Virus record (IMG/VR): IMGVR_UViG_3300046459_000548
Span: 28,200-92,199 of that record
Reading direction: 5' to 3' (one strand)
DNA from: a virus
DNA length: 64,000 nt
Below the pieces are notes generated by a model. The model was not told the DNA's origin and did no database searches. It was given only the letters and a program-made list of their open reading frames with translations. Below, piece by piece: positions 6,961-43,607 of the stretch (its first letter is position 1; each line of letters opens with the position of its first letter). A program made the translations under genes and the position numbers.

Positions 6961-6962
6961 CC

Positions 6963-7355: not shown

Positions 7356-7374
7356 AGGCCAGACACGCCCCACG

Positions 7375-7404: not shown

Positions 7405-7431
7405 CACCACCGCAGACTCGGAGAGAACCGG

Positions 7432-23971: not shown

Positions 23972-24282
23972 TGGGCAGCCAGGGCCGGCGCTCAGCACCG
24001 CTTCCCAAGGGCTGGCACCGCATCCGTGCCCGCGTCCTCAGGCGTGACCGCTGGGTGTGCCAGTGGCCCATCATCACGGGCGGCATCTGCGGCGAACCCG
24101 CCAACCAGGTCGACCACAAGGTCGGCGCGGCACAAGGCGTCGACGACCATAGCGATGCGAACCTTTGGGCGTTGTGCGAGTGGCACCACAACCAGAAGAC
24201 CGGGCGCGAGGCATCGGCCGTGGCTCACGCGCTACAGCCGAGAGCAAGGCCACAAGAGAAGCACCCAGGGTTCATCAACTGA
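23971..24282 (+). CDS. Packaging-associated HNH endonuclease (HK97 gp74-like)
   Basis: VLRRDRWVC...VDH...NLWALCEWHHNQKT...HPG; lies upstream of the terminase. Confidence 0.88.
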   Translation: MGSQGRRSAPLPKGWHRIRARVLRRDRWVCQWPIITGGICGEPANQVDHKVGAAQGVDDHSDANLWALCEWHHNQKTGREASAVAHALQPRARPQEKHPGFIN

Positions 24283-25231: not shown

Positions 25232-25834
25232 ATGACGACGAAGCGCTGCGAGCACTGCGGGGGACCACTTCCGGTCCTGGCTCGCGGTGACGCGCGCTTC
25301 TGTTCGGGTCGTTGCCGCACCGCGGCCTGTCGCCGGCGACAGCGGGCGACAGATCCGGTTCCTTCGGCGATGACTCGGCGCCGACAGTGGGTGCGACACA
25401 CGGACCGGAAGGTGCCACTGGCTGTTGGCCGGCGGCACGTCGGGCCTGCATCATCGACTGATTCGTCGACGTGGGCCACGTACCGCACCGCAGACCGGTC
25501 ACCGGCAGGGCAAGGCCTGGGGTTCGTCCTCACCGCCGAGGACCGCATCGTGTGCATCGACTTGGACCACGCCATGCGCGACGGTGAACTGCTGCCGTGG
25601 GCGCGGAACATCGTGGACCGTCTGCCAGCCTCGTACATCGAGGTGTCGCCCTCCGGGACCGGGCTGCATATCTGGGGGACTGGCGAGGTTGGCCGGGGCC
25701 GGAAGGTTCGCCGCGGCGAGGTCGCGATCGAGGTGTATGACCGGGCCCGGTACATCACGGTGACCCGTCAGCCGTTTGAAGATGCTCCGTCGAAGCTCGC
25801 CGACCTGTCGAAGGTAATTGCCGACTTGCTGTGA
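25232..25834 (+). CDS. Solo primase-polymerase (AEP, NrS-1-like) domain with N-terminal Zn finger
   Basis: CEHC...FCSGRCR; GLGFVL...CIDLDH, EVSPSGTGLHIW, EVYDRARYITVT; no helicase domain. Confidence 0.82.
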   Translation: MTTKRCEHCGGPLPVLARGDARFCSGRCRTAACRRRQRATDPVPSAMTRRRQWVRHTDRKVPLAVGRRHVGPASSTDSSTWATYRTADRSPAGQGLGFVLTAEDRIVCIDLDHAMRDGELLPWARNIVDRLPASYIEVSPSGTGLHIWGTGEVGRGRKVRRGEVAIEVYDRARYITVTRQPFEDAPSKLADLSKVIADLL

Positions 25835-25847
25835 GGGGGTGGCCCTG

Positions 25848-26306
25848 ATGGCTGGTCGCGGCATGGCACCGAAGGCGACGCGCTCGCGTTCGACGGACGC
25901 CAAGGCCCGGGATGCGGAGATGCGGCGCATCGAGGACGACGGCGAGTTGCGCGGACCTCCCCTGCCTGAGGGAGTCCTCCCGGATGGTGAGGACTGGCAC
26001 CCTCGAACTCGGCAGTGGTGGGACACCTGGCGAAGGTCTCCGCAAGCTCAGACGTTTATCGACACCGACTGGGACTTCCTTCTCGACACGGCACTTCTCC
26101 ACGCGATCATGTGGAGCCGCGGTAGATGGGAATTCGCCTCCGAGGTCCGTCTGCGGGCCGCGAAGTACGGGGCGACGCCGGAGGACCCGATGCGCCTGAA
26201 GTTGAAGATCGAGACTCCGGCGGACAGGCAGCCTCCTGCCGAGACGCCGCGGACGACGTCGGATCGTCGTAAGAACCTGCGGATCGTTGACGACGCCGCC
26301 GGGTAG
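25848..26306 (+). CDS. Terminase small subunit
   Basis: WHPRTRQWWDTWRRSPQA...TDWDFLLDTALLH...EVRLRAAKYGATPED; precedes TerL. Confidence 0.85.
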   Translation: MAGRGMAPKATRSRSTDAKARDAEMRRIEDDGELRGPPLPEGVLPDGEDWHPRTRQWWDTWRRSPQAQTFIDTDWDFLLDTALLHAIMWSRGRWEFASEVRLRAAKYGATPEDPMRLKLKIETPADRQPPAETPRTTSDRRKNLRIVDDAAG

Positions 26307-26314
26307 GGGGTGCC

Positions 26315-28978
26315 GTGCCTTGGAATGGCGGTACGCCCGAGCAGCCCTTTCCATCGCTGGGCCCGCAGATCGTCGAGCACATCGAGGAGTTCCTCTGCCA
26401 CGGCCCTGGCGACGTTGTCGGCGAGCCGATCGAACTGGACGATGAGTTCTACGCGTTCATCGTCAAGGCCTACCGTCTCGACCCGGAGACGGGCCGCCGT
26501 ATGTACCGGCGGGCGTTCCTGTCACGCGCGAAAGGGCGGGCCAAGTCGGAGATCGCCGGGATGCTCGTGTGCGCGGAGGCCCTGTTCCCGGTCCGCTTCG
26601 ACGGATGGGATGCGAACGGGGAGCCGGTCGGACGGCCGGTGAAGTCGCCGTTCATCCGCTGCCTGGCCACGGAAGAAGGCCAGTCGGGAAACACCTACGA
26701 CAACGTCTCGACGATGCTCGAGTATCTGGTCGAGAACCACGGTGACGACTTCCCGGGGATCGACATCGGCAAGTCGGCGCAGTCGTCGAGCCGGATCATC
26801 CTGCATCACCAGCGCGGCGAAATCACCCCGTCGACGGCGTCGTCTGCGGCGAAGGACGGCGGCAAGGAGACCTTCGCGGTGTTTGATGAGCCCATGGCTC
26901 TCGACACCCCCATACCAACCCCCGACGGCTGGAAGCAGATTGGCGACCTGAAAACCGGCGACTACGTCTACGGCGTGGACGGCCGCCCGATCCTCGTCTG
27001 GGGCGTAGCGCCGATCAAGCGCGATCGCCCCTGCTTCCGCGTGACCTTCGATGACGGCGCATCGGTGGTTACCGACGCCACTCACCGCTGGCACGTCTTC
27101 GACCGCAAGTCCACTAAAAAGTGGGCCGAGTGGACGACGCAGCAGATGGCGGACGCCAACTGGTACGGCGGCAAGCGGTTCGCCGTGGCGCAGGCTGCAG
27201 CGCTGGAAGCCGACGAAACGACGCTCCCGCTGGACCCGTATGTCCTGGGATTGTGGCTCGGCGACGGAGACGAGCGCGCTGCAACGCTCGCCGTGGGTCG
27301 CGACGACCTCGACGGCATGCTCGCAGAGCTTCACCGCGTCGGGTTCACGACCTCCGTCTACGACTACTCGGAAGATCGGGGCGCCGTCGCGGTCCGGTTC
27401 AACCACGGCCAGCGGTACGGCAAGAGCGGCACCTCGCAAGGCGCGCTGCGGGCGCTGGGAGTGCTGGAGAACAAGCATGCTCCGGACTCCTACCTATGGG
27501 CGTCCCGCGAGCAGCGCTTGGCGCTCCTGCAGGGCCTGATGGACAGCGACGGCTACGTCAACGAGCGCGGGAACTGCATCTTCACGAGCTCCTCGCGCGC
27601 CCTGGCGGACGCTGTTGTCCAGCTGGTGCGCTCGCTGGGCTGGCGCACGAGCGCAGGCCACTGGAGTTCGGACGAGCGCTGGAAGTCGCGGGTCACGGGA
27701 ACGTGGCGGGTCTCTTTCACGCCGTCAGGGATGGTTCCGTTCCGCATGAAGCGCAAGGCGGAGCGCTGCCGCCCGGTGGTCGCCGAGAAGACTCGGGCGA
27801 TCACGTCCATTGAGCCGGTGGAGTCGGTACCTGTCCGCTGCATCGCGGTGGACTCCGAAGATCACCTGTTCCTGGCTGGCGAGTCGATGCTTCCGACGCA
27901 CAACACGCACCTGTACGTGCTTCCGGAGCTGCGGCGCATGCACGGCACGGTCCGCCGCAACCTGCGGAAGCGCAAGGAAGCTGAACCGTGGTGCCTTGAG
28001 ACGTCGACGATGTACGAGCCGGGCCAGGACTCGGTGGCCGAAGCGACGCACACGTACTACAAGGCGATCAAGGAGGGGCGAGTTCGGGACGCGGACGCTG
28101 CCGGTCTCCTCTTCGATCATCGTCAGGCGAAGGACGGTACGGACCTCGCGGATCGTGACGCGCTCCTTGCTGGGCTCCGCGAGGCTTACGGGCCGGCCGC
28201 GGCCTGGATGGATCTGGACGGCATCGTTGCGGAGATTTGGGATCCGCAGTCGGCGCCTTCGGATTCGCGCCGGTACTGGTTGAACCAGCCGGTTGCGGCG
28301 GAGGATGCGCTGCTGGATCCGGCGGAGTGGGCGAAGTGTGCGTCGGAGCTTCGGCTCGAGGACGGCGACGACATCGTTCTCGGCTTCGATGGCGGCAAGT
28401 CGGATGACGCGACCGCGCTGGTCGCAATGCGGGTGTCGGACCGTCTCGTGCAGCCGCTGGGAATCTGGGAGCGCCCGGATGGTCCGCTGGCGAAGGGCTG
28501 GGAGGTCGACCGTAAGCAGGTCTCTGATCTGGTGGCGCATGCCTTCGGCCGCTACGGGGTGCGGGCGTTTTTCGCCGACGTGAAGCTGTGGGAGTCGTAC
28601 ATCGACGAGTGGACGGACACCTACCGGGATGAACTGTTGGCGAAGGCGTCTGCGAAGTCGCTGATCGGCTACGACATGCGGGGGCATCAGCAGGAGTTGA
28701 CGAAGGCGACTGAGGCGCTGGTGCAGGCGATCGCAGACGGCAAGCTCCCGCACACGAACCATCCGATCTTGAACCGGCATGTCGGCAACGCGCGGCGCCG
28801 GCCGAACCGTTTCGGCGTCAGCTTCGGCAAGGAGTCGCGTGAGTCGCCAAAGAAAGTGGACGGGTTCGCGGCGATGCAGCTGGCGGATATGGCGAGGCGG
28901 GCGCTGCTCGCGTCGTCTGAGTGGACGAAGCGGCAGAAGAAGCGGCAGCGGACGGGGCGGGTTCATGGCTTTGGGTGA
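26315..28978 (+). CDS. Terminase large subunit with intein
   Basis: RAKGRAKS (Walker A), FAVFDE (Walker B), LGFDGGKSDDATAL nuclease motif, KKVDG. Confidence 0.95.
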   Translation: MPWNGGTPEQPFPSLGPQIVEHIEEFLCHGPGDVVGEPIELDDEFYAFIVKAYRLDPETGRRMYRRAFLSRAKGRAKSEIAGMLVCAEALFPVRFDGWDANGEPVGRPVKSPFIRCLATEEGQSGNTYDNVSTMLEYLVENHGDDFPGIDIGKSAQSSSRIILHHQRGEITPSTASSAAKDGGKETFAVFDEPMALDTPIPTPDGWKQIGDLKTGDYVYGVDGRPILVWGVAPIKRDRPCFRVTFDDGASVVTDATHRWHVFDRKSTKKWAEWTTQQMADANWYGGKRFAVAQAAALEADETTLPLDPYVLGLWLGDGDERAATLAVGRDDLDGMLAELHRVGFTTSVYDYSEDRGAVAVRFNHGQRYGKSGTSQGALRALGVLENKHAPDSYLWASREQRLALLQGLMDSDGYVNERGNCIFTSSSRALADAVVQLVRSLGWRTSAGHWSSDERWKSRVTGTWRVSFTPSGMVPFRMKRKAERCRPVVAEKTRAITSIEPVESVPVRCIAVDSEDHLFLAGESMLPTHNTHLYVLPELRRMHGTVRRNLRKRKEAEPWCLETSTMYEPGQDSVAEATHTYYKAIKEGRVRDADAAGLLFDHRQAKDGTDLADRDALLAGLREAYGPAAAWMDLDGIVAEIWDPQSAPSDSRRYWLNQPVAAEDALLDPAEWAKCASELRLEDGDDIVLGFDGGKSDDATALVAMRVSDRLVQPLGIWERPDGPLAKGWEVDRKQVSDLVAHAFGRYGVRAFFADVKLWESYIDEWTDTYRDELLAKASAKSLIGYDMRGHQQELTKATEALVQAIADGKLPHTNHPILNRHVGNARRRPNRFGVSFGKESRESPKKVDGFAAMQLADMARRALLASSEWTKRQKKRQRTGRVHGFG
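26891..27904 (+). mobile_element. Class 3 intein with LAGLIDADG homing endonuclease (338 aa)
   Basis: Starts PMALDTPIPTPDGW after DE and ends LPTHN/T. WCT triad present (HRW, VRCIAV, THN). VLGLWLGDG and LLQGLMDSDG motifs. Confidence 0.92.
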
Positions 28979-28993: not shown

Positions 28994-30409
28994 GTGGTGA
29001 TGGGCACGAATGAGACGGTGTCGACGGCGCAGCGCCTGCTAAAGCTGCGGGCCGATGAGCAGGTCCGGCTGAAGAAGATCGCCGACTATATGGCTGGCCG
29101 GCATGCGAGCGTGTATGTGCCGCGGGGTGCGCGGGCGGAGTACCGGTGGCTGCTGGAGCGGGCCAAGGTCAAGATCCTGCCGCTGATCGTGACGGTCGTC
29201 GCGCAGAACATGTACGTCGACGGGTACCGGCCGGCAGGCAAGGACGAGAACGCAGCGCCGTGGGCGACGTGGCAGGCGAACCGTCTGGATGCCCGTCAGC
29301 ATGGCGTCCACCGGGCGGCGCTGACGTATGGGGCCGCGTATACGGTGGTGATGCCGGGCACTCCGACGCCGGTGGTCACCCCGTTTTCGCCGCGTCGGTT
29401 GACGGCCTTGTATGCGGATCCGGTGAATGACGAGTGGCCGCTGTATGCGGTCGAGGACCGGGTGGAGAACACGCCGGACGGTCAGCAGCGTGTGGTCCGC
29501 GTCTATGACGATCAGGCCAGGTATTCGCTGGTGTCGAAGGTCGACGGCTCGGACTTGCGGGCGGCGAAGGATACGCCGGTTCAGGAGCATGGTCTGGGCG
29601 TGTGTCCGGTGGTCCGGTTCGTCAACACCGACGATCTGGACGGCGACGGGGTGATGGGCGAGGTCGAGCCACTGATCGACGCCCAGGATCAGCTGAACAT
29701 GACCACCTTCAATCTGATGATGGCGCAGCAGTATGCGGCGTTCCGGCAGCGCTGGGTGACGGGCATGGTGCCTCCGGAGGACGAGTCAGGGAATCCGGTG
29801 GAGCCGTTCCGGTCCCGGGTGGATGGCCTGTTCGTCGCCGAGGACGCCGACACGAAGTTCGGCGAGTTCGGCGCTACGGACCTGAAGGGCTACCTGGACT
29901 CGACGGAGGCGACGATCCGGCACATTGCGACGCTGTCGCAGGTGCCTCCGTATCACCTGCTCGGGCACATGACGAACCTGTCGGCGGAAGCGCTGGCTGC
30001 GGCCCGGGACGGCCTGGACCGCAAGTGCGGTGAGCGCGAGTCGTCGTTCGGTGAGGCGTGGGAGCAGACGCTGCGTCTGGCGGGTCTCGCCGCTGGCGAT
30101 CGGGAGGCGTGGGCGGACACTTCAGCGCAGGTCGTGTGGCGGGATACGTCGGCGCGGTCGCTGGCTCAGACAGTCGATGCGCTCGGCAAGCTGGTGACGA
30201 TGCTGGGTGTGCCGCCGCAGGAGCTTTGGGAGCGGGTACCGGGTGTGACGCAGACGGATGTGGAGCGCTGGAAGACGGCTGCCCACGAGACGGATGCGAT
30301 GGCCCGCATGAACGACATCATCGCCAAGCAGATGGCTCCGCAGGTGCAGCAGCTCAATGGGGCGACTCCGGCTTCTCCGCCGCCTGCTGATCCGAAGGTA
30401 GCGGCGTGA
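28994..30409 (+). CDS. Portal protein (SPP1 gp6-like)
   Basis: WQANRLDARQ, GEVEPLIDAQDQLN, NLSAEAL; follows TerL. Confidence 0.92.
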   Translation: MVMGTNETVSTAQRLLKLRADEQVRLKKIADYMAGRHASVYVPRGARAEYRWLLERAKVKILPLIVTVVAQNMYVDGYRPAGKDENAAPWATWQANRLDARQHGVHRAALTYGAAYTVVMPGTPTPVVTPFSPRRLTALYADPVNDEWPLYAVEDRVENTPDGQQRVVRVYDDQARYSLVSKVDGSDLRAAKDTPVQEHGLGVCPVVRFVNTDDLDGDGVMGEVEPLIDAQDQLNMTTFNLMMAQQYAAFRQRWVTGMVPPEDESGNPVEPFRSRVDGLFVAEDADTKFGEFGATDLKGYLDSTEATIRHIATLSQVPPYHLLGHMTNLSAEALAAARDGLDRKCGERESSFGEAWEQTLRLAGLAAGDREAWADTSAQVVWRDTSARSLAQTVDALGKLVTMLGVPPQELWERVPGVTQTDVERWKTAAHETDAMARMNDIIAKQMAPQVQQLNGATPASPPPADPKVAA

Positions 30410-31185
30410 CGGCGAGTTCGCAGTTGGCGTCGGGATATCGGCGGACGCAGGCGCTGCTGGCGGCCCGACTGGTGCAGCAGATCGCCAGGACGTGGCGGCA
30501 GCTGGTGAACCCGGCGAACGTCGATGCGTCGTGGCCTGCTCTGCGGGCGCTGCTGGTTCCGCTGGTGCAGCAGACCCGGGCGCAGTCGGCGACGCTGGCT
30601 GCCTCGGCATATATGCAGGCGCGGCATGCGGCTGGGGTTGAGGATGGGCTGTTCCATCCGCCCGTGCCGAGCGCCTTGGAGTTGCCGCGGCTGGAGGCCA
30701 TGTTGGATGTGACCGGCCCGGTGGAGTTCAAGCGTGCCATCGCCGCAGGCAAGACCGAGCAGCAGGCGGTGGACGCCGCGGCGGTGCGGATGGCGGGGTC
30801 GACGCAGTATCTGGCGTTGGAGGGCGGCCGGTCGGTCATGCAGGAGGCGATCCGGCATGACGAGCGGGCGACGGGCTGGTCGCGGGTCACGGACAACGAT
30901 CCGTGTGCATGGTGCGCGATGCTCGCCTCCCGCGGCCCGGTGTACAAGTCGGCGAAGACTGCGGGAGATCCACGGAAGGGCGGCACCTCGTACCACGACC
31001 ACTGCGGGTGCCAGGCGTGGCCTGCGTTCACGATGGACGAGCCGTTCGTCGGCCTCGCCGAGAAGCTGTATGAGGACTGGCGGCGTGAGACGCGGGGCAC
31101 TGGCGGCCAGGATGCGGTGAACGCATTCCGTCGGTGGTGGGAAGCCGAAGGCCGGGCCGGGTACACGGCTCCGGCTCGACCGTAG
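30406..31185 (+). CDS. Minor capsid/head morphogenesis protein (MuF-like)
   Basis: WSRV...CAWCAMLASRGPVY...YHDHCGC. Confidence 0.85.
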   Translation: MTASSQLASGYRRTQALLAARLVQQIARTWRQLVNPANVDASWPALRALLVPLVQQTRAQSATLAASAYMQARHAAGVEDGLFHPPVPSALELPRLEAMLDVTGPVEFKRAIAAGKTEQQAVDAAAVRMAGSTQYLALEGGRSVMQEAIRHDERATGWSRVTDNDPCAWCAMLASRGPVYKSAKTAGDPRKGGTSYHDHCGCQAWPAFTMDEPFVGLAEKLYEDWRRETRGTGGQDAVNAFRRWWEAEGRAGYTAPARP

Positions 31186-32333: not shown

Positions 32334-33287
32334 GTGGCAACGACGTACAACTCTCTCATCAGCCGGGACGCCAGCAATGACCCGCTGGTGCCCACCCCTG
32401 TCAGCGCCGAGATCATCCAGGAGCTGCCGTCGATGTCGGCGCTGCTCACGCGGGCCAAGCAGGTCCCGATGAGCACGAAGACGCAGCGCCAGCCCGTCCT
32501 CGACGTGATGCCGCTCGCCTACTTCGTGGGCGGCGACACGGGTCTGAAGCAAACCACGGCGCAGGACTGGAAGAACGTCGACCTGATCGTCGAGGAGATC
32601 GCGGCGATCGTCCCGATCCCCGAGGCGTACCTCGACGACGCGCAGATGCCGATCTGGGACCAGGTCCGGCCGCGCCTCGTGGAGGCCATCGGCTCGAAGA
32701 TCGACGGCGCGGGTCTGTTCGGCACGGACAAGCCGTCGACGTGGCCGACCGCGATCTACCAGTCGGCGGTGGCCGCCGGAAACGTGGTCGTGTCCGGTGC
32801 GGGCGCCGACTTCGCGGTGGACGTCGCGTCCGCGGCGGGCAAGGTGTCCGAGGACGGGTTCGCCGTCAACGGCTTCGTGTCCCGCCCGGGTCTGACGTGG
32901 AAGCTGAACGGCATCCGGTCCGCCCAGGGCGTGCCGATCTACCAGCCGAACCTGCAGGGAACGCCGGGCGGCACGCTGTACGGCTACCCCATGTCGGAGC
33001 TCGCCAACGGCGCCTGGGTCTCCTCTGAGGCCGAGGTCATCATGGGCGACTGGTCGAAGGCCATCATCGGCCTGCGGCAGGACATCAGCTTCAAGATGTT
33101 CACCGAGGGTGTCATCTCGGACGACAACGGCAAGGTCATCCTCAACCTGATGCAGCAGGACTCGGTGGCGATGCGCGTCGTCATGCGGGTGGCGTTCGCC
33201 ACGGCCAACCCGGCGACCCGGATCAACACGAACTCGGCGACCCGGTCCCCGTTTGCGGTCGTCCAGGCGACGACGCACCAGTCCTGA
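32334..33287 (+). CDS. Major capsid protein (HK97 fold)
   Basis: LVPTPVSAEIIQ, EIAAIVPIPE, GTLYGYP, GDWS, NLMQQDSVAMR; C-terminus ...QATTHQS. Confidence 0.93.
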   Translation: MATTYNSLISRDASNDPLVPTPVSAEIIQELPSMSALLTRAKQVPMSTKTQRQPVLDVMPLAYFVGGDTGLKQTTAQDWKNVDLIVEEIAAIVPIPEAYLDDAQMPIWDQVRPRLVEAIGSKIDGAGLFGTDKPSTWPTAIYQSAVAAGNVVVSGAGADFAVDVASAAGKVSEDGFAVNGFVSRPGLTWKLNGIRSAQGVPIYQPNLQGTPGGTLYGYPMSELANGAWVSSEAEVIMGDWSKAIIGLRQDISFKMFTEGVISDDNGKVILNLMQQDSVAMRVVMRVAFATANPATRINTNSATRSPFAVVQATTHQS

Positions 33288-33354
33288 TTCCGCCCCGGCG
33301 GCCGGCTTCTCCCGCGCCGAGCCGGCCGCCGCCCGGTGGAGATCGGAGACCCTG

Positions 33355-34368
33355 GTGCGTGTTCTGGCAATGCTTCACGCCTACCCCCCGGCGCACAATG
33401 CGGGGGCCGAATGGGCAGCTCACGGGCTGCTGAGAGATTTGGCGGCCCGCGGCCATCAGGTCGATGTGCTGTTGTCCCAGTCAGCCGGCGTGACTGTCGG
33501 CTACGAACTCGACGGGGTCAGGGTTCATCCGTACCGCGGCAAGGGCGATCCGATGCCCTGGATGCGCGGCGACGGCCGGGCGCACGTGGTGGTGACTCAC
33601 CTGGAGAACACGCCGCGCGCGTCGATCCTCGCCGACTTGAACGCGATTCCGGTCGTGCACCTGCTGCACAACACGTTCTCCTTCACCAAGGCGTGGCTGG
33701 TCAAGGGCCTTCCGTCGCTGGTGGTGTACAACACGGCGTGGATGCGTGCCGACGTGGAGGCGTGGTGGGAGGCGGACCGGGGCGACCGGCCGATGCCTCC
33801 CGGCATGGTGGTCCGGCCCCCGGTGTACGTCGACGATTACCGGGCCACGCCGGGAAGCTGCGTCACCCTGATCAACCTGACGGAAGAGAAGGGCGCCAAG
33901 GTCTTCTACGGACTCGCCGAGCGGATGCCGCGCCGCAAATTTCTGGGCGTGGTCGGCGGCTATGGGCAGCAGATCGTCCGCGACGACCTCCCGAACGTGG
34001 AAATAGTCGAGCACACTCCTGGCCACGACATGGCCAAGCAGGTGTACGGGCGAACGAAAGTGCTGCTGGTGCCGTCGGTGTACGAGTCCTACGGGCGCGT
34101 CGCCGTGGAGGCCATGTGCTCGGGCATCCCCGTTGTCGCGCACCCCACGCCGGGGCTACTGGAGTCGTGCAGCGACGCCGGGGTCTTCTGTGACCGGGAC
34201 GACCTGGACGCGTGGGAGGCCGCAGTGAAGCGCCTCAACTCGCCGAAAATCTATCCGGAGGCATCGAAGGCCGCAGCGGCGCGAGCTGCTGAACTCGACC
34301 CGCGGACCCAACTCGATGCCTGGTGCACGGCGGTGGAGGGGGTGGCTGCACGTGGACGCCCTCGCTGA
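33355..34368 (+). CDS. GT4 (GT-B) glycosyltransferase 1
   Basis: HAYPPAHNAGAE, KG, PSVYESYGRVAVEAMCSGIPV (EX7E). Confidence 0.92.
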   Translation: MRVLAMLHAYPPAHNAGAEWAAHGLLRDLAARGHQVDVLLSQSAGVTVGYELDGVRVHPYRGKGDPMPWMRGDGRAHVVVTHLENTPRASILADLNAIPVVHLLHNTFSFTKAWLVKGLPSLVVYNTAWMRADVEAWWEADRGDRPMPPGMVVRPPVYVDDYRATPGSCVTLINLTEEKGAKVFYGLAERMPRRKFLGVVGGYGQQIVRDDLPNVEIVEHTPGHDMAKQVYGRTKVLLVPSVYESYGRVAVEAMCSGIPVVAHPTPGLLESCSDAGVFCDRDDLDAWEAAVKRLNSPKIYPEASKAAAARAAELDPRTQLDAWCTAVEGVAARGRPR

Positions 34369-34981
34369 CCTGACCGCCCTGGCGGCCCGTCTCGGACGGC
34401 CACTCCTGTCTGCGGAAGCCGACCGGGCCAGCGTCCTGCTGGACGACGCATCCGCGATGGTGCGCTCCTATACCGGGCAGACGTTCGCCCGGACCGACAA
34501 CGACACGATTGTGGTCCGCGCCCAGCAGGGCGAGATCCGGCTTCCCCAGCGCCCCGTCCGCGACGTGACGGTCGTGATCGCTGTCGGCGCGGGCGGCGCC
34601 CCGGACCTTCCGGTCGTCGGCTGGCAGTGGGACGGCCTGGACATCATCCGTACCTGCCAGGAATCGCCGGTGATCAACCTGCCGGAACGCTGGCACGAGG
34701 AAGACATTGCGGCCTATCCGGGCACCTATCGGGTGACCTACAGCCACGGCGGCACTGTCCCGCCCGACGTGGTGGCCGTTGTGGCGCGCATGGTGCTGCG
34801 GACGCTGACCGCGCCGACGATGGCGGGCGGCGTGACGGGCGAGACCCTCGGCCCGTACAGCTACCGCACGGACGGGTCCGGCGTGGGCACGGGCGTGGTC
34901 ATGACGGACGACGACCGCAAGACGCTGGCCCTGGCCGGCTACCGGCGTAAGGCGGCCATGTCGATGGTGAGGTTCCGGTGA
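34352..34981 (+). CDS. Head-to-tail adaptor
   Basis: LAARLGR...LLDDASAMVRSY...YSHG...ETLGPYSY. Confidence 0.85.
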   Translation: MDALADLTALAARLGRPLLSAEADRASVLLDDASAMVRSYTGQTFARTDNDTIVVRAQQGEIRLPQRPVRDVTVVIAVGAGGAPDLPVVGWQWDGLDIIRTCQESPVINLPERWHEEDIAAYPGTYRVTYSHGGTVPPDVVAVVARMVLRTLTAPTMAGGVTGETLGPYSYRTDGSGVGTGVVMTDDDRKTLALAGYRRKAAMSMVRFR

Positions 34982-35985
34982 CCGGGCTGAATGTGGTGGC
35001 GCGGCTGCACGCCTATCCGCCGGACCACAATGCGGGCGCTGAGTGGATGGTCCACGAGATGCTGCGCGCCCTCGTGCAGCGCGGACACCGGGCGACGGTG
35101 TGGCTGTCGCAGTGGGCGGAAACCCGCGAGCCGTATGACGTGGACGGTGTTCACGTGATGCCGGACGGGTCCGGCGGGAATTTCGCTCTGGCGGCGGCCA
35201 GGGCGGATGCGCTGGTCAGTCATCTGGAGAGCGTGCCGTATGCGGCAGCCTTGGCTCGCGGCCACGGCGTCCCCTTGATCGTGGTGTGCCACAACACGTT
35301 CGACCTGACATGGCAGCCGATGAGGGAGGGGTCGACGGCGCTCGCGGTCGCCAACTCGCAGTGGATGCTCACCGAGGCCGAGGCTTTCTTCGAGGGCCGC
35401 ACGTGCGGGCCGGACCGGTGGCTGACGGTACGGCCGCCCGTACACGCTGCCGAGTACCAGACACGCCCCGGCGACTGCATCACGCTGATCAACTGCACGA
35501 TGACCAAGGGGGCGGGGGTTCTGGCCGAGCTCGCGGAACGCATGCCGGACCGCAAGTTCCTGGCGGTGCGCGGCGGATACGGTGAGCAGCAGCCGCCCGA
35601 CCTGCCGAACGTCGCCGTCCTGGACCACGTCCCGGGCCGTGCCATGCGGGATGAGGTGTATGCCCGCACCCGGATCCTGCTGATGCCGTCGGACTACGAA
35701 TCGTGGGGCCGTGTAGGCGTGGAGGCCGTGGCCTCCGGTATCCCCGTCATCGCACACCCCACCGAAGGCCTCACGGAATCCCTCGGCCCAGCGGGCACCT
35801 TCTGTGATCGCGACAACGTGGACGTGTGGCAGAAGGCAATCGAGATGCTCGACGACCCGGCCGTATACCGTGCCGCATCCCGCCGGGCCAAGGCCCGCTC
35901 CAAAGCCCTGGATCCGGGCGCAGACCTTGCGGCGTGGTGCACGGCCGTCGAGGAGGTGTGCAGTGAGGAACCTGCCGAACGGTGA
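34978..35985 (+). CDS. GT4 (GT-B) glycosyltransferase 2, paralogue of 33355
   Basis: HAYPPDHNAGAE, PSDYESWGRVGVEAVASGIPV. Confidence 0.92.
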   Translation: MTGLNVVARLHAYPPDHNAGAEWMVHEMLRALVQRGHRATVWLSQWAETREPYDVDGVHVMPDGSGGNFALAAARADALVSHLESVPYAAALARGHGVPLIVVCHNTFDLTWQPMREGSTALAVANSQWMLTEAEAFFEGRTCGPDRWLTVRPPVHAAEYQTRPGDCITLINCTMTKGAGVLAELAERMPDRKFLAVRGGYGEQQPPDLPNVAVLDHVPGRAMRDEVYARTRILLMPSDYESWGRVGVEAVASGIPVIAHPTEGLTESLGPAGTFCDRDNVDVWQKAIEMLDDPAVYRAASRRAKARSKALDPGADLAAWCTAVEEVCSEEPAER

Positions 35986-36322
35986 GACCGTCACCGTCAT
36001 CCGGCCCGGCCCGGCCACGCGGGACCAGTACGGCAACGACGTGCCCGGGACGCCGACGGAGACCGACATCCCCGGGTGCGGCATCGCCCCGAGAGAAGGT
36101 GCGGGCGGCGGCAGCGAGATCCTCCAGGCACAGCAGGTCCGCGACACTGTCATCACAGGCCTGACTCTGTATGCGCCCTACGGAACCGACCTGCGGGCAA
36201 CAGACAAGGTCAGGATTGCCGGGGCAACCTACGAGGTGCAGGGCCAGCCCGGATCGTTTGCGTCACCGTTCACCGCTTCGACGGGCCCGGTCATGGCAGC
36301 CCTTCAGCTGATCACTGGCTGA
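35963..36322 (+). CDS. Head-to-tail stopper
   Basis: GETVTVIR...DQYGND...LYAPYGTDLRATDKV...YEVQGQP. Confidence 0.85.
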   Translation: MRNLPNGETVTVIRPGPATRDQYGNDVPGTPTETDIPGCGIAPREGAGGGSEILQAQQVRDTVITGLTLYAPYGTDLRATDKVRIAGATYEVQGQPGSFASPFTASTGPVMAALQLITG

Positions 36323-36629
36323 GGGCGTCCCGCACGAGGTCGCGGAGCTTCTCGAATGAGGGCTGATCCTTGCGGCTGAACAGCACAGCATTCTCGTCGC
36401 GGTTGACGGGGGTGGCCACGGCGGATGCCTGGCTGCCCGGCACGGCGAACCGCAGGTGCCCGGAGCTGAAGAGGCTTGCAGGTTTCCAGTCGACCGAGCT
36501 GATCCGCCCGACGGGAATGGTGTGCTCACCGCGCCCGAACACGGACACGGCGAGGCGCCCCCCACGACGGATCGTCACAGTCGTGCCGTCGAAGTGCACA
36601 GTCCCCCCGACGGACGTCGCTTCCGTCAC
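36312..36629 (-). CDS. DUF4429-like (PH-like) protein, antisense within the structural operon
   Basis: GTVHFDGTTVTIRR...IPVGRISSVDWKPA...GHLRF...DENAVLF; fills the gap between two neck genes. Confidence 0.75.
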   Translation of the reverse strand: MTEATSVGGTVHFDGTTVTIRRGGRLAVSVFGRGEHTIPVGRISSVDWKPASLFSSGHLRFAVPGSQASAVATPVNRDENAVLFSRKDQPSFEKLRDLVRDALSQ

Positions 36630-36657
36630 TGCTGCCCCCTATCTGCCTGAGGAGGCG

Positions 36658-36993
36658 ATGGTAGTGGCTGCACGCTTCAAGGCGTCCTACAGCGGCGTCG
36701 GACAGTTGCTGCGCTCAGACATGATGGAACGGGAGATGCTCCGCCGCGCCAACCTGATCAGGAACGTCGCGGAGGGTATTGCGCCGGTCGGCACCCCTCC
36801 GGGTGATCCTCACCCGGGTGTCTACAAGGCGGCGATCGTGGTTGCGTCGACGAAGCGCGGCGGGCGGCGCCGGGACCGGGCCGCGGCCACGGTCACGAAC
36901 ACCGCCTACTACGCCCGGTGGGTCGAGTACGGCACCGAACGCGTCCCCGCCCATCACGTGATGCTGCGCGCCGCCCAAGCAGGGGGTCGCTGA
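36658..36993 (+). CDS. HK97 gp10-like neck/tail-completion protein
   Basis: APV...HPGVYK...YARWVEYGT; RBS GAGGAGG. Confidence 0.82.
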   Translation: MVVAARFKASYSGVGQLLRSDMMEREMLRRANLIRNVAEGIAPVGTPPGDPHPGVYKAAIVVASTKRGGRRRDRAAATVTNTAYYARWVEYGTERVPAHHVMLRAAQAGGR

Positions 36994-37385
36994 TGGCCGA
37001 TGTCGGCAGCGTGGACATCGAAGTCGAGCTGGTGGCCTGGCTGGGCGGCGAACTGGATGTGCGCGTCCTCACCGAACTCCCCCCGACTCTCACCGACATC
37101 CTTCCCGTGCTCCTCGTGCAGCGCGTGGGAGGTGACGACGACACGTTCCGCCTGGACAGGGCACTGGTCGATGTGGACGCCTACGCTGCAACGCGGGCCG
37201 AAGCCGCCGCGCTGGCGGGGAGCGCCCGAAGCCACCTGGTGGCCGCGTTGCGTGGCGTCCGCACGACGAACGCGGTGTTCGGGCGCGTGAGCACGGTGCA
37301 GGCGCCCGCGTGGCGCCCCTACGAGAACACGAACCTGCGCCGTATCGGCGCCACCTACGAGATCTTCTTCCATCCGGTCTCCTGA
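36993..37385 (+). CDS. Tail terminator
   Basis: VQRVGG...DRALVDVDAYA; position before the tail tube gene. Confidence 0.82.
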   Translation: MADVGSVDIEVELVAWLGGELDVRVLTELPPTLTDILPVLLVQRVGGDDDTFRLDRALVDVDAYAATRAEAAALAGSARSHLVAALRGVRTTNAVFGRVSTVQAPAWRPYENTNLRRIGATYEIFFHPVS

Positions 37386-37466
37386 CCGCCTGATTGGGCC
37401 CGCGCCGGACCCCTTTCCCCTCGACCCCGCCGATGTGCGGGGTTTACGCATGTTGGGAGACCCTTC

Positions 37467-38051
37467 ATGGTCAACATCACACGGTCGTCGGATCTGACCG
37501 TCATCGGAAGCAATGGCGCCGGCTGGGTGGCGGACGTCGGCACGACCGCACCCGCGAGCCCGCTGGTGCAGCCCGTCTCCCCGTGGGAGCCGCTCGGCGC
37601 CATCAGCGACAACGGCCTCGTGTACGGCTTCAACGAGTCCTCGCAGGAGTTCACGCCGTGGGGTCTGACCTCCCCGTTCCGGCGCACGATCACCAAGAGC
37701 GAGCGCACGTTCAAGATGAACCTGTGGGAGACGGCCCGCACCACCGTCCAGTCGATCATGTACCGGATTCCGGAGGGCGACCTCGCACCGTCCGCCGGCA
37801 AGACCACCTACGCCGAAACCGCCAGCCCGAGCGTCGACCGCCGCGCCTGGTGGTTCGTCGTCCTCGACGGATCGTCCGCCCGCGGGTTCTACGTCCCGCA
37901 GGGAGAAGTCTCCGACCGCTCCGACGTGACGTTCAAGCAGGACGAGCTCAGCGGCTACGAGATCACCATCACCGCGTACCCGGACACCGCCGGGAACACC
38001 GTCTACCACACCGACATCATCCCAGCGACGCCCGTCTACACCGGCTCCTGA
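37467..38051 (+). CDS. Major tail (tube) protein
   Basis: LGAISDNGL...PWG...GYEITITAYPD; C-terminus ...PVYTGS. Confidence 0.9.
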   Translation: MVNITRSSDLTVIGSNGAGWVADVGTTAPASPLVQPVSPWEPLGAISDNGLVYGFNESSQEFTPWGLTSPFRRTITKSERTFKMNLWETARTTVQSIMYRIPEGDLAPSAGKTTYAETASPSVDRRAWWFVVLDGSSARGFYVPQGEVSDRSDVTFKQDELSGYEITITAYPDTAGNTVYHTDIIPATPVYTGS

Positions 38052-38145: not shown

Positions 38146-38577
38146 ATGACCACAACGTCCCGCCCCGCCCGCCCGGGGCGCGCCATGCCGCACAACTCCG
38201 CGCCGCGTCCCACCGCGGTACGCGTGACGGAGGAACAAGAGGACGACTTCGAGGAGGAGACCAGCGCCGCCGAGGCGCAGGAACTCGAAGCCGACACCGA
38301 CGGCCACTACGTGACGGCTACGCTCGCCGGGGAGCCGATCCGCATCATCCCGCCCGGCGCATGGCGCCAGTCCTGGCAGACGAAGCTCGCCCGAGGCCAG
38401 TTCAACGCTTTCGCGGAGGAAGTCGTCCACCCCGACGACCTCGACCTCTACTTCGACATCGACCCGACCAACGACGAGTTCGAGCAGTTCGTGACGGACG
38501 CGGCGAACATGTCGGGTGAGAGCCTGGGGAAATCGCGTGGACCCTCTCGGTCCTCCAGGCGCACGCGGAAGCGGTAG
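38146..38577 (+). CDS. Tail assembly chaperone (G)
   Basis: Lies between tube and tape measure; ends GESLGKS... Confidence 0.85.
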   Translation: MTTTSRPARPGRAMPHNSAPRPTAVRVTEEQEDDFEEETSAAEAQELEADTDGHYVTATLAGEPIRIIPPGAWRQSWQTKLARGQFNAFAEEVVHPDDLDLYFDIDPTNDEFEQFVTDAANMSGESLGKSRGPSRSSRRTRKR

Positions 38578-38987
38578 AGGCAGACCTGGCCCGCTACTAC
38601 CCGGGCATGGACGTCCTCGACGTGCACCGGGGCCGGATGTCATGGCGGCGCCTGCGTGTACTGATCCAGCACCTGCCGCCGGAATCCGCCACCATGACAG
38701 CGCTGCGGAACTCCCTACCGGAAGAGGAACTGGCGGAACAGGCAGACAAGGGCGAGCCGGAGAAGAGCCGCTGGTCGCAGCTGGAACAGCTGGTGGCTGG
38801 ACTGCTGGATGCCACGCGACGAGTCGAGTACGTGCTGATCCTCGCGAATTCAGAAGGCAACTCGAGGAAGCCTGATCCACCGGAGCCGGTACGCCGTCCC
38901 GGCGCCAAGCCCCGCAGGCCGAAGATCGCGATCACTGACGAGGGCGCGGAGTTCCTCTTCCAACTGATCAACGGAGGCGCCGCGTAG
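38146..38987 (+). CDS. Tail assembly chaperone GT via -1 frameshift at GGGGAAA (38526-38532)
   Basis: The -1 frame reads EIAWTLSVLQAHAEAVEADLARYYPGMDVL...SWRRLRVLIQHLPPES to 38987. Confidence 0.82.
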
Positions 38988-39008: not shown

Positions 39009-42000
39009 GTGGCGATCACAGTCGGTTCGGTTGAAGTCGATGTCATCCCCAACACGCAGGGCATCTATCAGCGCCTGCGTGCGGGAATCGTTCCGGCGGC
39101 CACCCGGGCTGGCGAAGACGCGGGCAGTGCAGCAGGCCGGGCGTTCGGCCCGGCGATGCAGGGCCAGGTCAACAGTGTCGGGCTCCGGATCGGCGAGGAG
39201 ATCGGGCAGCAGATCGCTTCCCGGATCACCGCATCCTTGCGGGATGCGATCCGCAGCGGCGTCACGACGGGCGGACAGACGGCGCGCCCGGCGGCGACCC
39301 GGCAGGGTGACGAGACCGGGGGCGCGTTCTCCCGGGCACTGAAGGCCCGCCTGGAGGCGGCCTTCCGGTCGCTGCCGCGCGCAGATATACGGATCGGCGA
39401 CGCCGGATTCGACACGGACATGGCCCGGCTGCGGGCCCGCATCGAAACGCTGTCCGGCAAGCGCATCGGGATCGACGTGACCGCCGAGGCGGCCAAGGCC
39501 GAGATCACCGCCATTGAGGAACGGCTGCGGCGTCTTGGCGCGGAGCACCCGAATGTTCAGGTCCGGGCGGACACGGCCGCCGCCCTGGCGCAACTGGCGG
39601 CAGTGCGGGCGCAGATCGACGGCGTCGACGGCGATACCGCCCATGCCCGGGTGGACATTGACACCTCGGGCGCCATGTCGGCGATCTTCCAGCTGACGGT
39701 TGCATTGGCTGGCGTCGCTGCGATTCCAGCGATTCCCGTGCTCGGCGCCGGCCTTGGCGCTCTGGCGTCGTCGGCGGTCGCCGCAGGAGCGGGTGTCGGC
39801 GCGCTGGCGGCGGTGGCGATCCCTGCGATCTCGGGGATTCGGGCAGCGTTGACGGCACAGACTGCGGCTCAGCAGGCCGCATCGACGGCCAACGCCAGTG
39901 CCGGTCAGTCGAGTTCTCAGGCCGCCAGCAAGGCCCTTCAGCTCGCCGGTGCACAACAGTCCCTGGCGACCGCCGAACGCAACGGTGCGAACCAGATCGC
40001 CCAGGCCCAGCAGCAGGTGAAGCAGGCCAGGCAGGGCGTCTCGGATGCCATCGCGCAGGCCGCACAGCGGACCCAGCAGGCCGAACGGCAGGTCCAGGAC
40101 GCCGAGAGGGCTCTCACGCAGGCGCAGAAGGATGCGACGCAGGCGCAGTTGGACCTGACGGCGGCCCGCAAGCAGGCCGTCCGTGACCTGCAGGACATGA
40201 ACAACAACCTCGCGGACGCCCAGCTGTCACAGCGCGACGCGATGCTTCAGGTTCAGGAAGCGAAGACCAGCCTCGATGCGACCCTGGCGAACCCGAAGGC
40301 CACCGAACTGCAGCGGCAGCAAGCCCAGCTGCAGTACGACCAGGCCGTCCAGCACCTTAAGGAGCAGCAGCTCCAGACGAAGCGCCTCCAGTCGGACACG
40401 GCAGCCGCCAACAAGGCGGGCGTCAACGGCTCGGCGTCAGTGAAGACGGCGCAGGACAAGGTGGCCGCGGCGCAGCAGACCGTTGCGGACCGCACGCGGG
40501 CCCTTCGTGATGCGCAGGTCAACCAGGCGCAGGTGGCGACGCAGAACGCCCGCGCCATCGCCGACGCCCAGCAGAAGGTGGCGACGGCGGAGAAGAACGT
40601 GGCGACCGCCCAGCAGAACGCCGCCGACTCGATCGCCTCCGCACAGCGCCAGATCCAGCAGGCTCAGCTGTCGACCGCGTCGACGGCGAGCAAGGCGGAG
40701 ACGGCGCAGTCCAAGTATCAGGCAGCGCTGGCGAAGCTGACGCCGGCGGCCCGCGGCACGTTCGACGCGTTCCTTGCTTTGCGGGCCGCGTTCAAGAGCT
40801 GGTCGGAATCCTTGCAGCCGCAGGTGATGCCGCTGTTTACGCGTGCTCTGGTGAGTCTGCGGAACACGTTGCCGACCCTGACATTGTTCGTGAAGGGTGC
40901 AGTCGACGCCATCAAGGAGCTTCAGGATCGGGTGTCGGCTTCGGTGAAGTCCCCGTTCTGGCAGGGCTTCAAGAAGGATCTGCAGGGCTCGGTGAAGCCG
41001 GCCATCGTCGGCCTCGGGGTGGCGTTCGGGAACGTCATCACGGGCATGGCGGGCATTATCGACGCCTTCCTGCCGCACATGGACGGGATCTCGGGCGGCC
41101 TGCAGCGGATTACCGGCAAGTTCGCCGACTGGGGCACCTCCCTGAAGGGGTCTCCTGCGTTCGAGCGGTTCTTGCAGTACGCGGCACAAGAGGCACCGAA
41201 ACTCGGGGCGGCCCTGGGGCAGATCGCCACGGCGTTCCTTGCGGTGGGCACGGCGATCGCACCCTTGTCCGGACCAGCATTGGCGATCATTACGGCGCTG
41301 GCGTCGGGCATCGCTTCACTGGCCACGACCATGCCGGGCCTGGTGCAGCTGATGTACGCCACGTATGTGGCGACTCGGCTGGTGACGATCGCGCAGTTCG
41401 CCTACAACACGGCGCTGGGGGTCTACCGAGCCGGGGTGGTGCTGGCAACGCTTCTGACGGAGGGCTGGGCCGCCGCGATCGTAGCGGCCAACTTGGCATT
41501 CGATGCAAACCCGATCGTTGTGGTCGTCGGCATTATCGTCGCCGTGCTGGCGGCGCTGGTGCTCGCGGTCATCTACGCCTGGAATCACTTCACATGGTTC
41601 CGTGACGCGGTCAAGGCCGTTTGGACGGCAATCCAGATCGCCGCCCTGTGGGCGTGGCAGAACGTCCTCCAGCCCGTGTTCAACGCGATCTGGGGCGCCC
41701 TGAAGTCGGTTGGCGACAAGGCCGTCTGGCTGTGGCGAAACGTCCTCGTACCGGCGTTTTCGGCGATCGCCCTAGCCGCCAGGATCCTCATCACGGCGAT
41801 CCTGGTGATCCTCATCCTCCCCTGGGTGCTGGCGTTCAAGCTGGTTGCGACCGTTGCAACGTGGCTGTGGGCACACGCCATCAAGCCTGCCTTCGACGCT
41901 ATCGGCGCTGCAGCCGGCTGGCTGTGGAGGAATGCGATCTCACCTTCTCTCCACGGGATCGCCGACTTGGCGCACTGGCTGTACAACACGGCGATCAGGC

Positions 42001-43607
42001 CGGTGGGGAGCGTGATCCAAACCGCCCTGCATGCCGTGGGCAACGCTGGGACATGGCTGTGGAGGAATGCGATCTCGCCCGCGGTTCACGGCATCTCGGA
42101 TGCTGCGCACTGGCTGTACGACAAGGCAATCAAGCCCGTCTTCGGTGCGATCAGCACAGTCATCGACGGCACTTGGCGGAACGGGATCAAGCCGGTCTTC
42201 GACCTGCTGAAGACGGCGGTCGGGAAGGTCGCCGATTCCTTCGAGACCGCCCGCAAGACCATCAAGACGGCCTGGGACAAGCTCGAAGACATCGCGAAGA
42301 AGCCCGTCAACTTCATCATCGACGTCGTCTACAACAAAGGCATCGTCGGAGTCTGGAACAAGATCGCTGGAGCGTTTGGTGCCCCCACGCTGAAGACGTT
42401 CCAGTTCGCCACGGGCGGCATCATGCCTGGCTACACGCCCGGGCGGGACGTGCATCAATTCGTCTCGCCCACGGGTGGGGCGCTGGAACTGTCCGGCGGC
42501 GAGGCCATCATGCGGCCCGAGTTCACCCGGGCCGTCGGCTCCGGCTTCGTCGGTGCGATGAACTCGATCGCCAAGTCCCGGGGCGAGCAGGGTGTTAAGG
42601 CGGCGCTCGCCCCCGTGTTCGGGGGGAACCCGAGCACCCCGACCGACCGGTCGCTGAAGTACGCGGATGGCGGCCTGGTGCAGCGTTTCGGGGACGGTGG
42701 CATCTTCGGCTGGATCAGCTCCGCCGCGTCTGCCGTGAAGGGCGTCGGGAGCGCTGCCTGGAACGGCATCAAGAAGGGCGCAAGCTGGCTCGCGGACACC
42801 CTGGAGGCGTCGGCGCGAGCCGGGGTCAAGCACGTCGTCGACCCGCTACTCTCCCAGTTCCCCGGCATGGACACCGGGTTCGGCAAGATGATCCGCCACA
42901 TCCCGACACACATGATCGACGCCCTGTTCGGCTACTCGAAGGAGTCCGACAAGAAGGGCGGCGGCGGGCTCGGCGGCCCGAAGATCCAGAGCGCTCTGAA
43001 CTGGGCCAAAACCCAAGCCGGCCTGCCCTACCAGTGGGCCGGTAACGGCAACCCGTCGTGGGACTGCAGCGGGTTCATGTCGGCGATCGAGTCCGTAATC
43101 CGCGGCCAGAAGCCGCACCGCCGTTGGGCCACGGGCGCATTCTCCGGCGAGACGGCACCGCCCGGGTGGGTCCTGCACGGCAACAGCCCGTTCCGCATCG
43201 GCATCACGAATGCGGGCGTCGGGCACACCGCAGGCACGCTCGGCAAAACGAACGTGGAGTCCAGGGGCGGTGCGGGCGTCATCGTCGGCAGCCGAGCCCG
43301 CGGATACAAGGACAGCCTGTTCACAGACTGGTACGGATTCCAGCCGGGCAAGTACGACTCGGGCGGCTACCTGCAGCCGGGGATGAATCTGGCGTTCAAC
43401 GGGACCGGGCGGCCCGAGCCCGTGTTCACGTCCGCGCAGGCAAAGGCGCTCACATCGATGGCCGCCCATGGCACATCCGGGCCGGCGAGCTTCGAAGGCG
43501 ACCTGTATCTCGACAGCGGCGAATTCCTCGGGAAGGTCCGCGGTGAAGCCCAGCAGGTCATGCAGCAGGGGCAGCGGGACCTGATGTCCGTCATCAACGC
43601 GAGCTGA
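39009..43607 (+). CDS. Tape measure protein with C-terminal NlpC/P60 peptidase
   Basis: 1532 aa; Gln/Ala coiled coil, Trp-periodic repeats, PYQWAG...WDCSGF...GHT. Confidence 0.93.
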   Translation: MAITVGSVEVDVIPNTQGIYQRLRAGIVPAATRAGEDAGSAAGRAFGPAMQGQVNSVGLRIGEEIGQQIASRITASLRDAIRSGVTTGGQTARPAATRQGDETGGAFSRALKARLEAAFRSLPRADIRIGDAGFDTDMARLRARIETLSGKRIGIDVTAEAAKAEITAIEERLRRLGAEHPNVQVRADTAAALAQLAAVRAQIDGVDGDTAHARVDIDTSGAMSAIFQLTVALAGVAAIPAIPVLGAGLGALASSAVAAGAGVGALAAVAIPAISGIRAALTAQTAAQQAASTANASAGQSSSQAASKALQLAGAQQSLATAERNGANQIAQAQQQVKQARQGVSDAIAQAAQRTQQAERQVQDAERALTQAQKDATQAQLDLTAARKQAVRDLQDMNNNLADAQLSQRDAMLQVQEAKTSLDATLANPKATELQRQQAQLQYDQAVQHLKEQQLQTKRLQSDTAAANKAGVNGSASVKTAQDKVAAAQQTVADRTRALRDAQVNQAQVATQNARAIADAQQKVATAEKNVATAQQNAADSIASAQRQIQQAQLSTASTASKAETAQSKYQAALAKLTPAARGTFDAFLALRAAFKSWSESLQPQVMPLFTRALVSLRNTLPTLTLFVKGAVDAIKELQDRVSASVKSPFWQGFKKDLQGSVKPAIVGLGVAFGNVITGMAGIIDAFLPHMDGISGGLQRITGKFADWGTSLKGSPAFERFLQYAAQEAPKLGAALGQIATAFLAVGTAIAPLSGPALAIITALASGIASLATTMPGLVQLMYATYVATRLVTIAQFAYNTALGVYRAGVVLATLLTEGWAAAIVAANLAFDANPIVVVVGIIVAVLAALVLAVIYAWNHFTWFRDAVKAVWTAIQIAALWAWQNVLQPVFNAIWGALKSVGDKAVWLWRNVLVPAFSAIALAARILITAILVILILPWVLAFKLVATVATWLWAHAIKPAFDAIGAAAGWLWRNAISPSLHGIADLAHWLYNTAIRPVGSVIQTALHAVGNAGTWLWRNAISPAVHGISDAAHWLYDKAIKPVFGAISTVIDGTWRNGIKPVFDLLKTAVGKVADSFETARKTIKTAWDKLEDIAKKPVNFIIDVVYNKGIVGVWNKIAGAFGAPTLKTFQFATGGIMPGYTPGRDVHQFVSPTGGALELSGGEAIMRPEFTRAVGSGFVGAMNSIAKSRGEQGVKAALAPVFGGNPSTPTDRSLKYADGGLVQRFGDGGIFGWISSAASAVKGVGSAAWNGIKKGASWLADTLEASARAGVKHVVDPLLSQFPGMDTGFGKMIRHIPTHMIDALFGYSKESDKKGGGGLGGPKIQSALNWAKTQAGLPYQWAGNGNPSWDCSGFMSAIESVIRGQKPHRRWATGAFSGETAPPGWVLHGNSPFRIGITNAGVGHTAGTLGKTNVESRGGAGVIVGSRARGYKDSLFTDWYGFQPGKYDSGGYLQPGMNLAFNGTGRPEPVFTSAQAKALTSMAAHGTSGPASFEGDLYLDSGEFLGKVRGEAQQVMQQGQRDLMSVINAS

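Follow-up and report, generated by a model that had tools for sequence, protein, structure and literature searches.

The 64,000-nucleotide stretch analysed here (the window) comprises bases 28200–92199 of the 92,199-base IMG/VR record IMGVR_UViG_3300046459_000548, which CheckV rated as complete. Its close relatives were found as prophages within large contigs of nine Streptomyces genomes, and the source phage is therefore a temperate Streptomyces siphophage; the prophages of S. sparsogenes ATCC 25498 and S. synnematoformans JCM 15481 (loci L170 and L176) are two such relatives. In the head–neck part of its late operon, two genes for glycosyltransferases (GTs) of family GT4, here called copies A and B, stand among the genes for virion proteins, and both the major capsid protein and the tail tube protein end in Ser. 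A preliminary description of the sequence had proposed a virion O-glycosylation system from this combination. The genes from capsid to tail tube are listed below with E-values (E) of their profile matches; the start codons of copy A, adaptor, head closure, and neck genes were chosen by inspection of start codons and ribosome-binding sites.

32334–33287, + strand: major capsid protein, HK97-type, 317 residues (PF05065, E 4.5e-27; phrog_10, E 5e-48), ending in Thr-His-Gln-Ser, proposed acceptor
33355–34368 (alternative start 33253), + strand: GT4 copy A, 337 residues from the GTG at 33355 (Glycos_transf_1, Glyco_trans_1_4, Glyco_transf_4; phrog_26352)
34352–34981 (alternative start 34316), + strand: head–tail adaptor (phrog_442, E 1e-23; PF09355)
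34978–35985, + strand: GT4 copy B, 335 residues (phrog_26352; Pfam GT4 families)
35963–36322, + strand: head closure protein (phrog_501, E 1e-18)
36658–36993, + strand: neck or tail completion protein (phrog_5, E 1.4e-08; weak PF04883 match, E 0.0023, 19.3 bits, under the 21.4-bit cut-off)
36993–37385, + strand: tail terminator (phrog_123, E 6.5e-21), ending in Ser, not supported as a substrate
37467–38051, + strand: tail tube protein, 194 residues (PF25681, E 4.5e-17; phrog_117), ending in Tyr-Thr-Gly-Ser, proposed second acceptor

Both GT4 copies passed the curated Pfam cut-offs for PF00534 and PF13692, and copy B additionally those for PF13439 and PF13579. Each matched phrog_26352, a family annotated in PHROG as "unknown function", over nearly the whole profile (E about 3e-109 for copy A and about 3e-133 for copy B). 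The copies are paralogues with 49–51% identity, and the EX7E motif is intact in both. In an alignment of 70 family members, 27 columns were invariant, including G20, H105, N106, K177, G178, E241, and E249; of these, K177 and G178 constitute the Lys-Gly phosphate-binding motif, which is present in both window copies. The earlier identification of paralogous GT4 genes with intact EX7E motifs was confirmed by the profile matches, the pairwise identity, and this alignment. The AlphaFold2 model of copy B had a predicted local distance difference test score (pLDDT) of 95.7, and its top Foldseek matches were all GT4 enzymes (E 1.6e-15 to MshA). The best structural matches were the retaining enzymes MshA, BshA, PimA, and PglA (PDB 3c4q, 3mbo, 2gej, and 8dqd), with which copy B shares the GT-B fold (TM-score 0.72–0.78, query-normalised), the EX7E motif, and the Lys-Gly motif at 12–20% sequence identity. 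This combination of fold and motifs implies retaining transfer from a nucleoside diphosphate (NDP)-sugar, and copies A and B are predicted to be soluble, retaining GT4 enzymes of the GT-B fold.

One GT4 gene had been described as immediately following the capsid gene and the other as standing between those for adaptor and stopper, both overlapping their neighbours. The placement was correct, as were three overlaps: 17 nucleotides between copy A and the adaptor gene, 4 nucleotides (GTGA) between the adaptor gene and copy B, and 23 nucleotides between copy B and the head closure gene. Copy A does not overlap the capsid gene, since its GTG start at 33355, preceded by GGAGA, follows the capsid stop codon after a gap of 67 nucleotides. 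The gene order and the overlaps of 4–23 nucleotides point to co-expression of the GT4 enzymes with the late genes.

The order capsid, GT, adaptor, GT, head closure was kept in approximately 25 viral contigs and in the nine Streptomyces prophages, at 66–100% capsid identity. More distant phages carried a single enzyme directly after the capsid gene. In phage contigs with a guanine-plus-cytosine (GC) content of 33–45%, enzymes of the phrog_26352 type were encoded downstream of the capsid, with a phrog_442 adaptor as the next gene, and were often preceded by a methyltransferase or by a second or small glycosyltransferase. Because this place was kept across distant phages, the GT4 gene appears tied to head–neck morphogenesis, unlike a casual insertion. 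Among the isolated phages of the collection, Streptomyces phage TurkishDelight alone carried this enzyme family. Its gp20, annotated as a glycosyltransferase, is 36–37% identical to the window enzymes and is encoded in the interval from the capsid gene to the major tail gene. The capsid and tail protein of TurkishDelight likewise both end in Ser. It differs from the window in that two GT4 modules are fused into one protein of 678 residues, in its capsid, which belongs to a different family (575 residues), and in the lack of DNA similarity between the genomes. In a megablast search of the region against isolated phages, a short match to the capsid of phage JacoRen57 was the sole result.

The C-termini quoted in the preliminary description, including ...QATTHQS for the capsid and ...PVYTGS for the tail tube, were all correct as written. 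Terminal Ser was found in 10 of the 71 predicted proteins of the window (14%); that it is fairly common here counts against a special meaning, and the chance that capsid and tail tube both end in Ser is about 2% on this genome alone, so that the evidential weight rests on the relatives. The tail terminator, tape measure, depolymerase, and 16604 protein had been added to the list of Ser-ending proteins; their termini were read correctly, and at a background of 14% their number is what chance would give. The Ser ends of the depolymerase and of the protein encoded at 16643–16987 consequently mean little. For the terminator, Ser ended 9 of 18 distinct tails in GT-bearing relatives. As its terminal Ser and that of the tape measure were conserved in close relatives only, both proteins were rejected as substrates.

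Capsid and tail tube C-termini were read in all fetched loci (designated L with a number), and counts refer to non-redundant tails. Where a GT4 was detectable in the locus by tblastn, 43 of 48 capsids ended in Ser (the others in Thr, four cases, and Asn, one case), compared with 5 of 37 where no GT4 was detected. Tail tubes behaved similarly, with Ser at the end of 21 of 23 distinct tails in GT-bearing phages vs. 2 of 15 where no GT4 was detected. Only the last position was conserved: Ser ended 32 of the 38 distinct capsid tails of GT-bearing relatives while positions −2 to −10 varied, and the last position in GT-bearing phages had an entropy of 0.73 bit in capsids and 0.43 bit in tubes, vs. 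1.9–2.8 bits at the preceding positions. In GT-less relatives, the last position varied as much as the remaining tail positions. Terminal Ser also recurred with unrelated or very distant capsids, namely in L028/L029 (25% identity), in TurkishDelight and L038, and in a Saprospiraceae prophage; no relationship was detectable between the tail proteins of L038 and TurkishDelight.

Four of the five Ser-ending capsids without a detected GT4 were checked. L111 carried a divergent GT4 3.7 kb downstream, and L120 an epimerase with a GT2 and a GT7C-like gene. In L102, an IS605 TnpB gene (1807–2991, − strand) followed by a tyrosine integrase was inserted after the capsid gene, and in its sister L106 the same TnpB element (6888–8072, − strand) lies between the capsid and GT genes. 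For L108, the contig stops too soon to allow a judgement. Two further loci were reclassified: L164, earlier unclassified, encodes a Glyco_trans_1_2 enzyme and an FkbM methyltransferase, and L163, whose capsid ends in Thr, has a four-gene sugar cassette. After this reclassification, capsids ended in Ser in 46 of 52 cases with a nearby phage GT and in 1 of 32 without. Co-occurrence of terminal Ser with GT genes in relatives, proposed earlier as a check, was hence borne out by the raw counts and did not reach significance once phylogeny was considered (see below).

Two other types of capsid C-terminus were observed. In Mycobacterium phage FF47 (L085; 5992–6984 and 8876–9517), capsid and tube share nearly the same Gly5-(Glu-Gly)n tail, which is another C-terminal tag common to the two proteins; no GT was found in the 13-kb structural stretch examined, and L159 ends similarly. 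Among the GT-less capsid relatives, a large clade (L117–L162) has a C-terminal extension of 60–120 residues in place of the short Ser tail, in which a conserved stretch rich in Pro and Tyr precedes a strongly charged end, and the matching tail tubes end in Tyr-Phe-Thr.

A close parallel is provided by mycobacteriophages. O-glycans are reportedly attached at the C terminus of the capsid and tail tube subunits of phages Che8 and Corndog, and to our knowledge, as of 2023, glycosylated phage particles had been shown for a few mycobacteriophages only. Papers citing Freeman et al. (2023, Cell Host Microbe 31:1216) confirmed the gist and contained no site-level detail. According to the GenBank records, Ser is the last residue of capsid gp6 and tube gp11 of Che8 and of capsid gp41 and tube gp49 of Corndog, preceded by Gly in three of the four; the Che8 tail terminator does not end in Ser. 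The window thus shares the sequence signature of Che8 and Corndog at the ends of both proteins. Like Che8 (gp108–110), Corndog (gp35–38), and Myrna, it encodes its own GTs, with capsid and tube as the targets proposed here; the Corndog enzymes also lie within the head-gene block. A sugar-tailoring gene accompanies the transferases in each case, an O-methyltransferase in Che8 and Corndog and an epimerase in the window. The enzymes themselves differ, being of the GT-A type (GT2 and GT25-like) with a TylF O-methyltransferase in Che8 and Corndog, vs. GT4 enzymes of the GT-B type and a GT-A enzyme of phrog_14945 in the window, and no similarity was found between the window enzymes and Che8 gp109/gp110 or Corndog gp37/gp38 by BLASTP or phmmer. 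Further differences are that the window derives from a Streptomyces prophage, that its GT genes are interleaved with those for adaptor and head closure, and that the system is predicted here from sequence. Overall, the window resembles the Che8/Corndog system in its putative targets and tag, not in its enzymes. Methyltransferases, SAM (S-adenosylmethionine)-dependent or of the FkbM type, were also seen adjoining structural-module GTs in unrelated phages (L064, 9495–10004; L164, 7353–8084; L163, 8290–9048), echoing the O-methyltransferases of Che8 and Corndog.

Two additional sugar-related genes are located upstream of the terminase genes:

21147–21854, + strand: third glycosyltransferase, GT-A-like, 235 residues (phrog_14945 "glycosyltransferase", E 5e-46)
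22391–23263, + strand: NAD-dependent NDP-sugar epimerase/dehydratase, 290 residues (PF01370, E 9e-33; phrog_540, E 8e-45)

In L136 and L142, homologues of the GT-A-like gene separate the GT4 gene from the adaptor gene. Such homologues also occur inside the capsid–adaptor cassette of L160, which in addition gave weak tblastn matches to the epimerase (23–27% identical). Because of these locations in relatives, both enzymes were linked to the same pathway as the GT4 copies. The GT-A-like gene was detected by PHROG only. A Pfam GT2 search of the record gave no match, and further GT1/GT4 or epimerase genes were not found in the 92-kb record. Directly before the GT-A-like gene, 18118–21138 encodes a likely depolymerase of 1006 residues with two pectate-lyase-like beta-helix regions and a match to an endosialidase N-terminal extension.

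Taken together, a virion O-glycosylation system of a temperate Streptomyces siphophage is the best-supported explanation for these predicted genes, to which we assign a probability of about 0.68, and the terminal Ser of capsid and tail tube likely serves as acceptor or tag. The earlier suggestion of a Streptomyces-phage version of C-terminal virion O-glycosylation is supported by synteny, by the terminal Ser residues, by the Che8 and Corndog substrates, and by the Streptomyces hosts, within the limits of few independent evolutionary events. Such a variant is new in enzymes and gene layout, not in principle. In the proposed mechanism, cytoplasmic enzymes would assemble an O-linked glycan at the Ser that ends the capsid and tail tube subunits, and a sugar chain would then be present on every exposed head and tail subunit. 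The recognition tag would be the terminal position itself, with the Ser hydroxyl beside a free carboxylate. One enzyme may start the chain on both proteins, copy A being the likelier initiator because its type is usually the one present alone; copy B and the GT-A enzyme would extend the chain, and the epimerase may supply a modified donor sugar. Shielding of the surface or altered adhesion could be the pay-off in soil, both of which are guesses. A precedent for a GT4 acting on protein is GtfA/GtfB, the O-GlcNAc transferase of streptococcal serine-rich adhesins, which modifies Ser/Thr in the cytoplasm; it needs a partner subunit and targets long Ser-rich repeats rather than a C-terminal residue. 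GtfA/GtfB was absent among the 50 Foldseek matches listed for copy B.

Several observations weigh against this reading. The GT state changes about three times on the capsid tree, which leaves two to three independent pairs and a non-significant sign test; the raw Fisher p-value of 7e-16 ignores ancestry and is inflated by shared descent. The capsids of the low-GC loci L064 and L073 end in Ile and that of L050 in Ala, and the candidate capsid of the high-GC locus L036 ends in Val, HHalign having found nothing when it was compared with the capsid profile. A few GT-bearing phages end in Thr, Thr-Pro, or Asn, and one clade has Ser-Leu-Thr at the capsid end and Thr-Pro at that of the tube. The GT4 enzymes lack sequence similarity to the Che8 and Corndog glycosyltransferases, and the acceptors of their structural neighbours are small molecules, lipids, or sugars (inositol phosphate, malate, lipids, and lipid-linked sugars for MshA, BshA, PimA, and PglA), not a protein terminus. 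Fixed end residues also occur in other structural proteins, always Gly in head closure proteins and mostly Arg in adaptors, in these cases within conserved motifs. The AlphaFold2 model of the capsid (pLDDT 77) was set aside, since its C-terminus was predicted with too little certainty to show whether it is exposed.

As to the division of labour between the two enzymes, both one GT per substrate and sequential sugar addition had been considered. A split in which the capsid is modified by copy A and the tail tube by copy B is unlikely. The copies diverge more in the N-terminal acceptor domain (35–48% identity) than in the donor domain (53–65%) in 13 of 13 phages, as would be expected of two substrates, but N-domains of GT-B enzymes generally diverge faster anyway, and the greater acceptor-domain divergence weakly suggests different acceptors of another kind, first protein and then sugar. 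In the enzyme tree, the after-adaptor copies fell into a single supported clade and the after-capsid copies grouped with most single enzymes, from which an old duplication with maintenance of both copies was deduced. This retention would suit dedicated enzymes as well; yet terminal Ser is found on both capsid and tube in phages that have just one enzyme, whichever its type (L028/29, L031/32, L096, L098, and L114), and the fusion of both enzymes in TurkishDelight fits consecutive steps on one product. The old, maintained duplication, the single-enzyme phages, and this fusion together speak more for stepwise synthesis of a single glycan than for a separate enzyme for each substrate.

An alternative concerning the site of modification, which we consider improbable, is that virion proteins are glycosylated elsewhere, either at internal Ser/Thr of the Thr-rich tails or on a decoration protein, fibre, or depolymerase, and that the terminal Ser is kept for other reasons or is a docking element only. 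The capsid tails are indeed also Thr-rich at positions −4 and −5, and in L036 the enzyme follows a head-decoration gene; the Val end of its candidate capsid, the absence of terminal Ser in low-GC members, and the fixed ends of head closure and adaptor proteins would suit this alternative too. It is opposed by the conservation of the last position alone in the variable tails of two unrelated proteins, by the terminal Ser of the four Che8 and Corndog proteins proven to be glycosylated, and by the reported C-terminal location of the glycans in those phages.

Less probable still is a target outside the virion, with the place in the head operon being a moron-type accident; candidates would be phage DNA, a host defence molecule, or the host envelope, whose modification could mask receptors or exclude superinfecting phages. 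The usual products of GT4 enzymes are glycolipids, glycans, and small-molecule conjugates, and PHROG files related families under "moron, auxiliary metabolic gene". Both copies also narrowly exceeded the cut-off of 26 bits for PF20706, "GT4 in conflict systems", scoring 28.5 and 31.4 bits; this model ranked below the general GT4 models for copy B and above PF13439, PF13579, and PF13524 for copy A, and no PADLOC defence family matched the GT4 enzymes. Unlike a moron, the enzyme kept its adjacency to capsid and adaptor genes from Streptomyces prophages to contigs of 33% GC. Translational coupling to late genes would be the wrong timing for lysogenic conversion, and the location typical of Gtr-type conversion genes was not found, the GT4 genes lying within the late head–neck operon and overlapping structural genes (membrane partners were not searched for). 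A non-virion target would also leave the terminal-Ser pattern unexplained. Within this group, glycosylation of phage DNA is argued against by gene location alone.

The remaining late genes that were mapped flank the region listed above:

25818–26306, + strand: small terminase
26315–28978, + strand: large terminase with intein-like insert
28994–30409, + strand: portal
30406–31185, + strand: VG15/MuF-like protein
ending at 32259, + strand: scaffold
38146–38577 and 38607–38987, + strand: chaperones
39009–43607, + strand: tape measure

The large terminase contains an insert of approximately 330 residues (residues 193–522) with homing-endonuclease-like motifs. Because terminase residues 1–192 and 523–887 are contiguous in every relative, the insert is probably an intein-like element specific to this phage. 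Upstream of the small terminase, 23971–24282 encodes an HNH endonuclease (phrog_333, E 1e-27); such endonucleases are the usual partners of cos-type packaging. Between the head closure and neck genes, a gap of approximately 335 nucleotides (36322–36658) is present in some relatives and absent from others, and an open reading frame within it had no PHROG match.

Were the proposed virion O-glycosylation system real, the phenomenon would extend to Streptomyces prophages and more than 100 uncultured phage contigs, and phrog_26352, a PHROG of unknown function, would acquire a role as a second, unrelated enzyme family with an equivalent function at a C-terminal tag of the same kind. A simple rule readable from sequence would follow, namely a phage GT together with terminal Ser on capsid and tube, and the short portable tag with its enzyme could be used for decorating phage particles with sugars. 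A wider proposal, for which we see somewhat less than an even chance, is that terminal Ser on capsid and tube is a general, convergent "glyco-tag" of actinobacteriophage virions, read by unrelated enzyme sets (the GT-A enzymes of Che8 and Corndog, the GT4 enzymes of phrog_26352, and the cassettes of L120, L163, and L164). In that case, glycosylated phages would be predictable from sequence alone, and the GT4–adaptor module would mark a widespread, unannotated virion-glycosylation system beyond the Actinobacteria.

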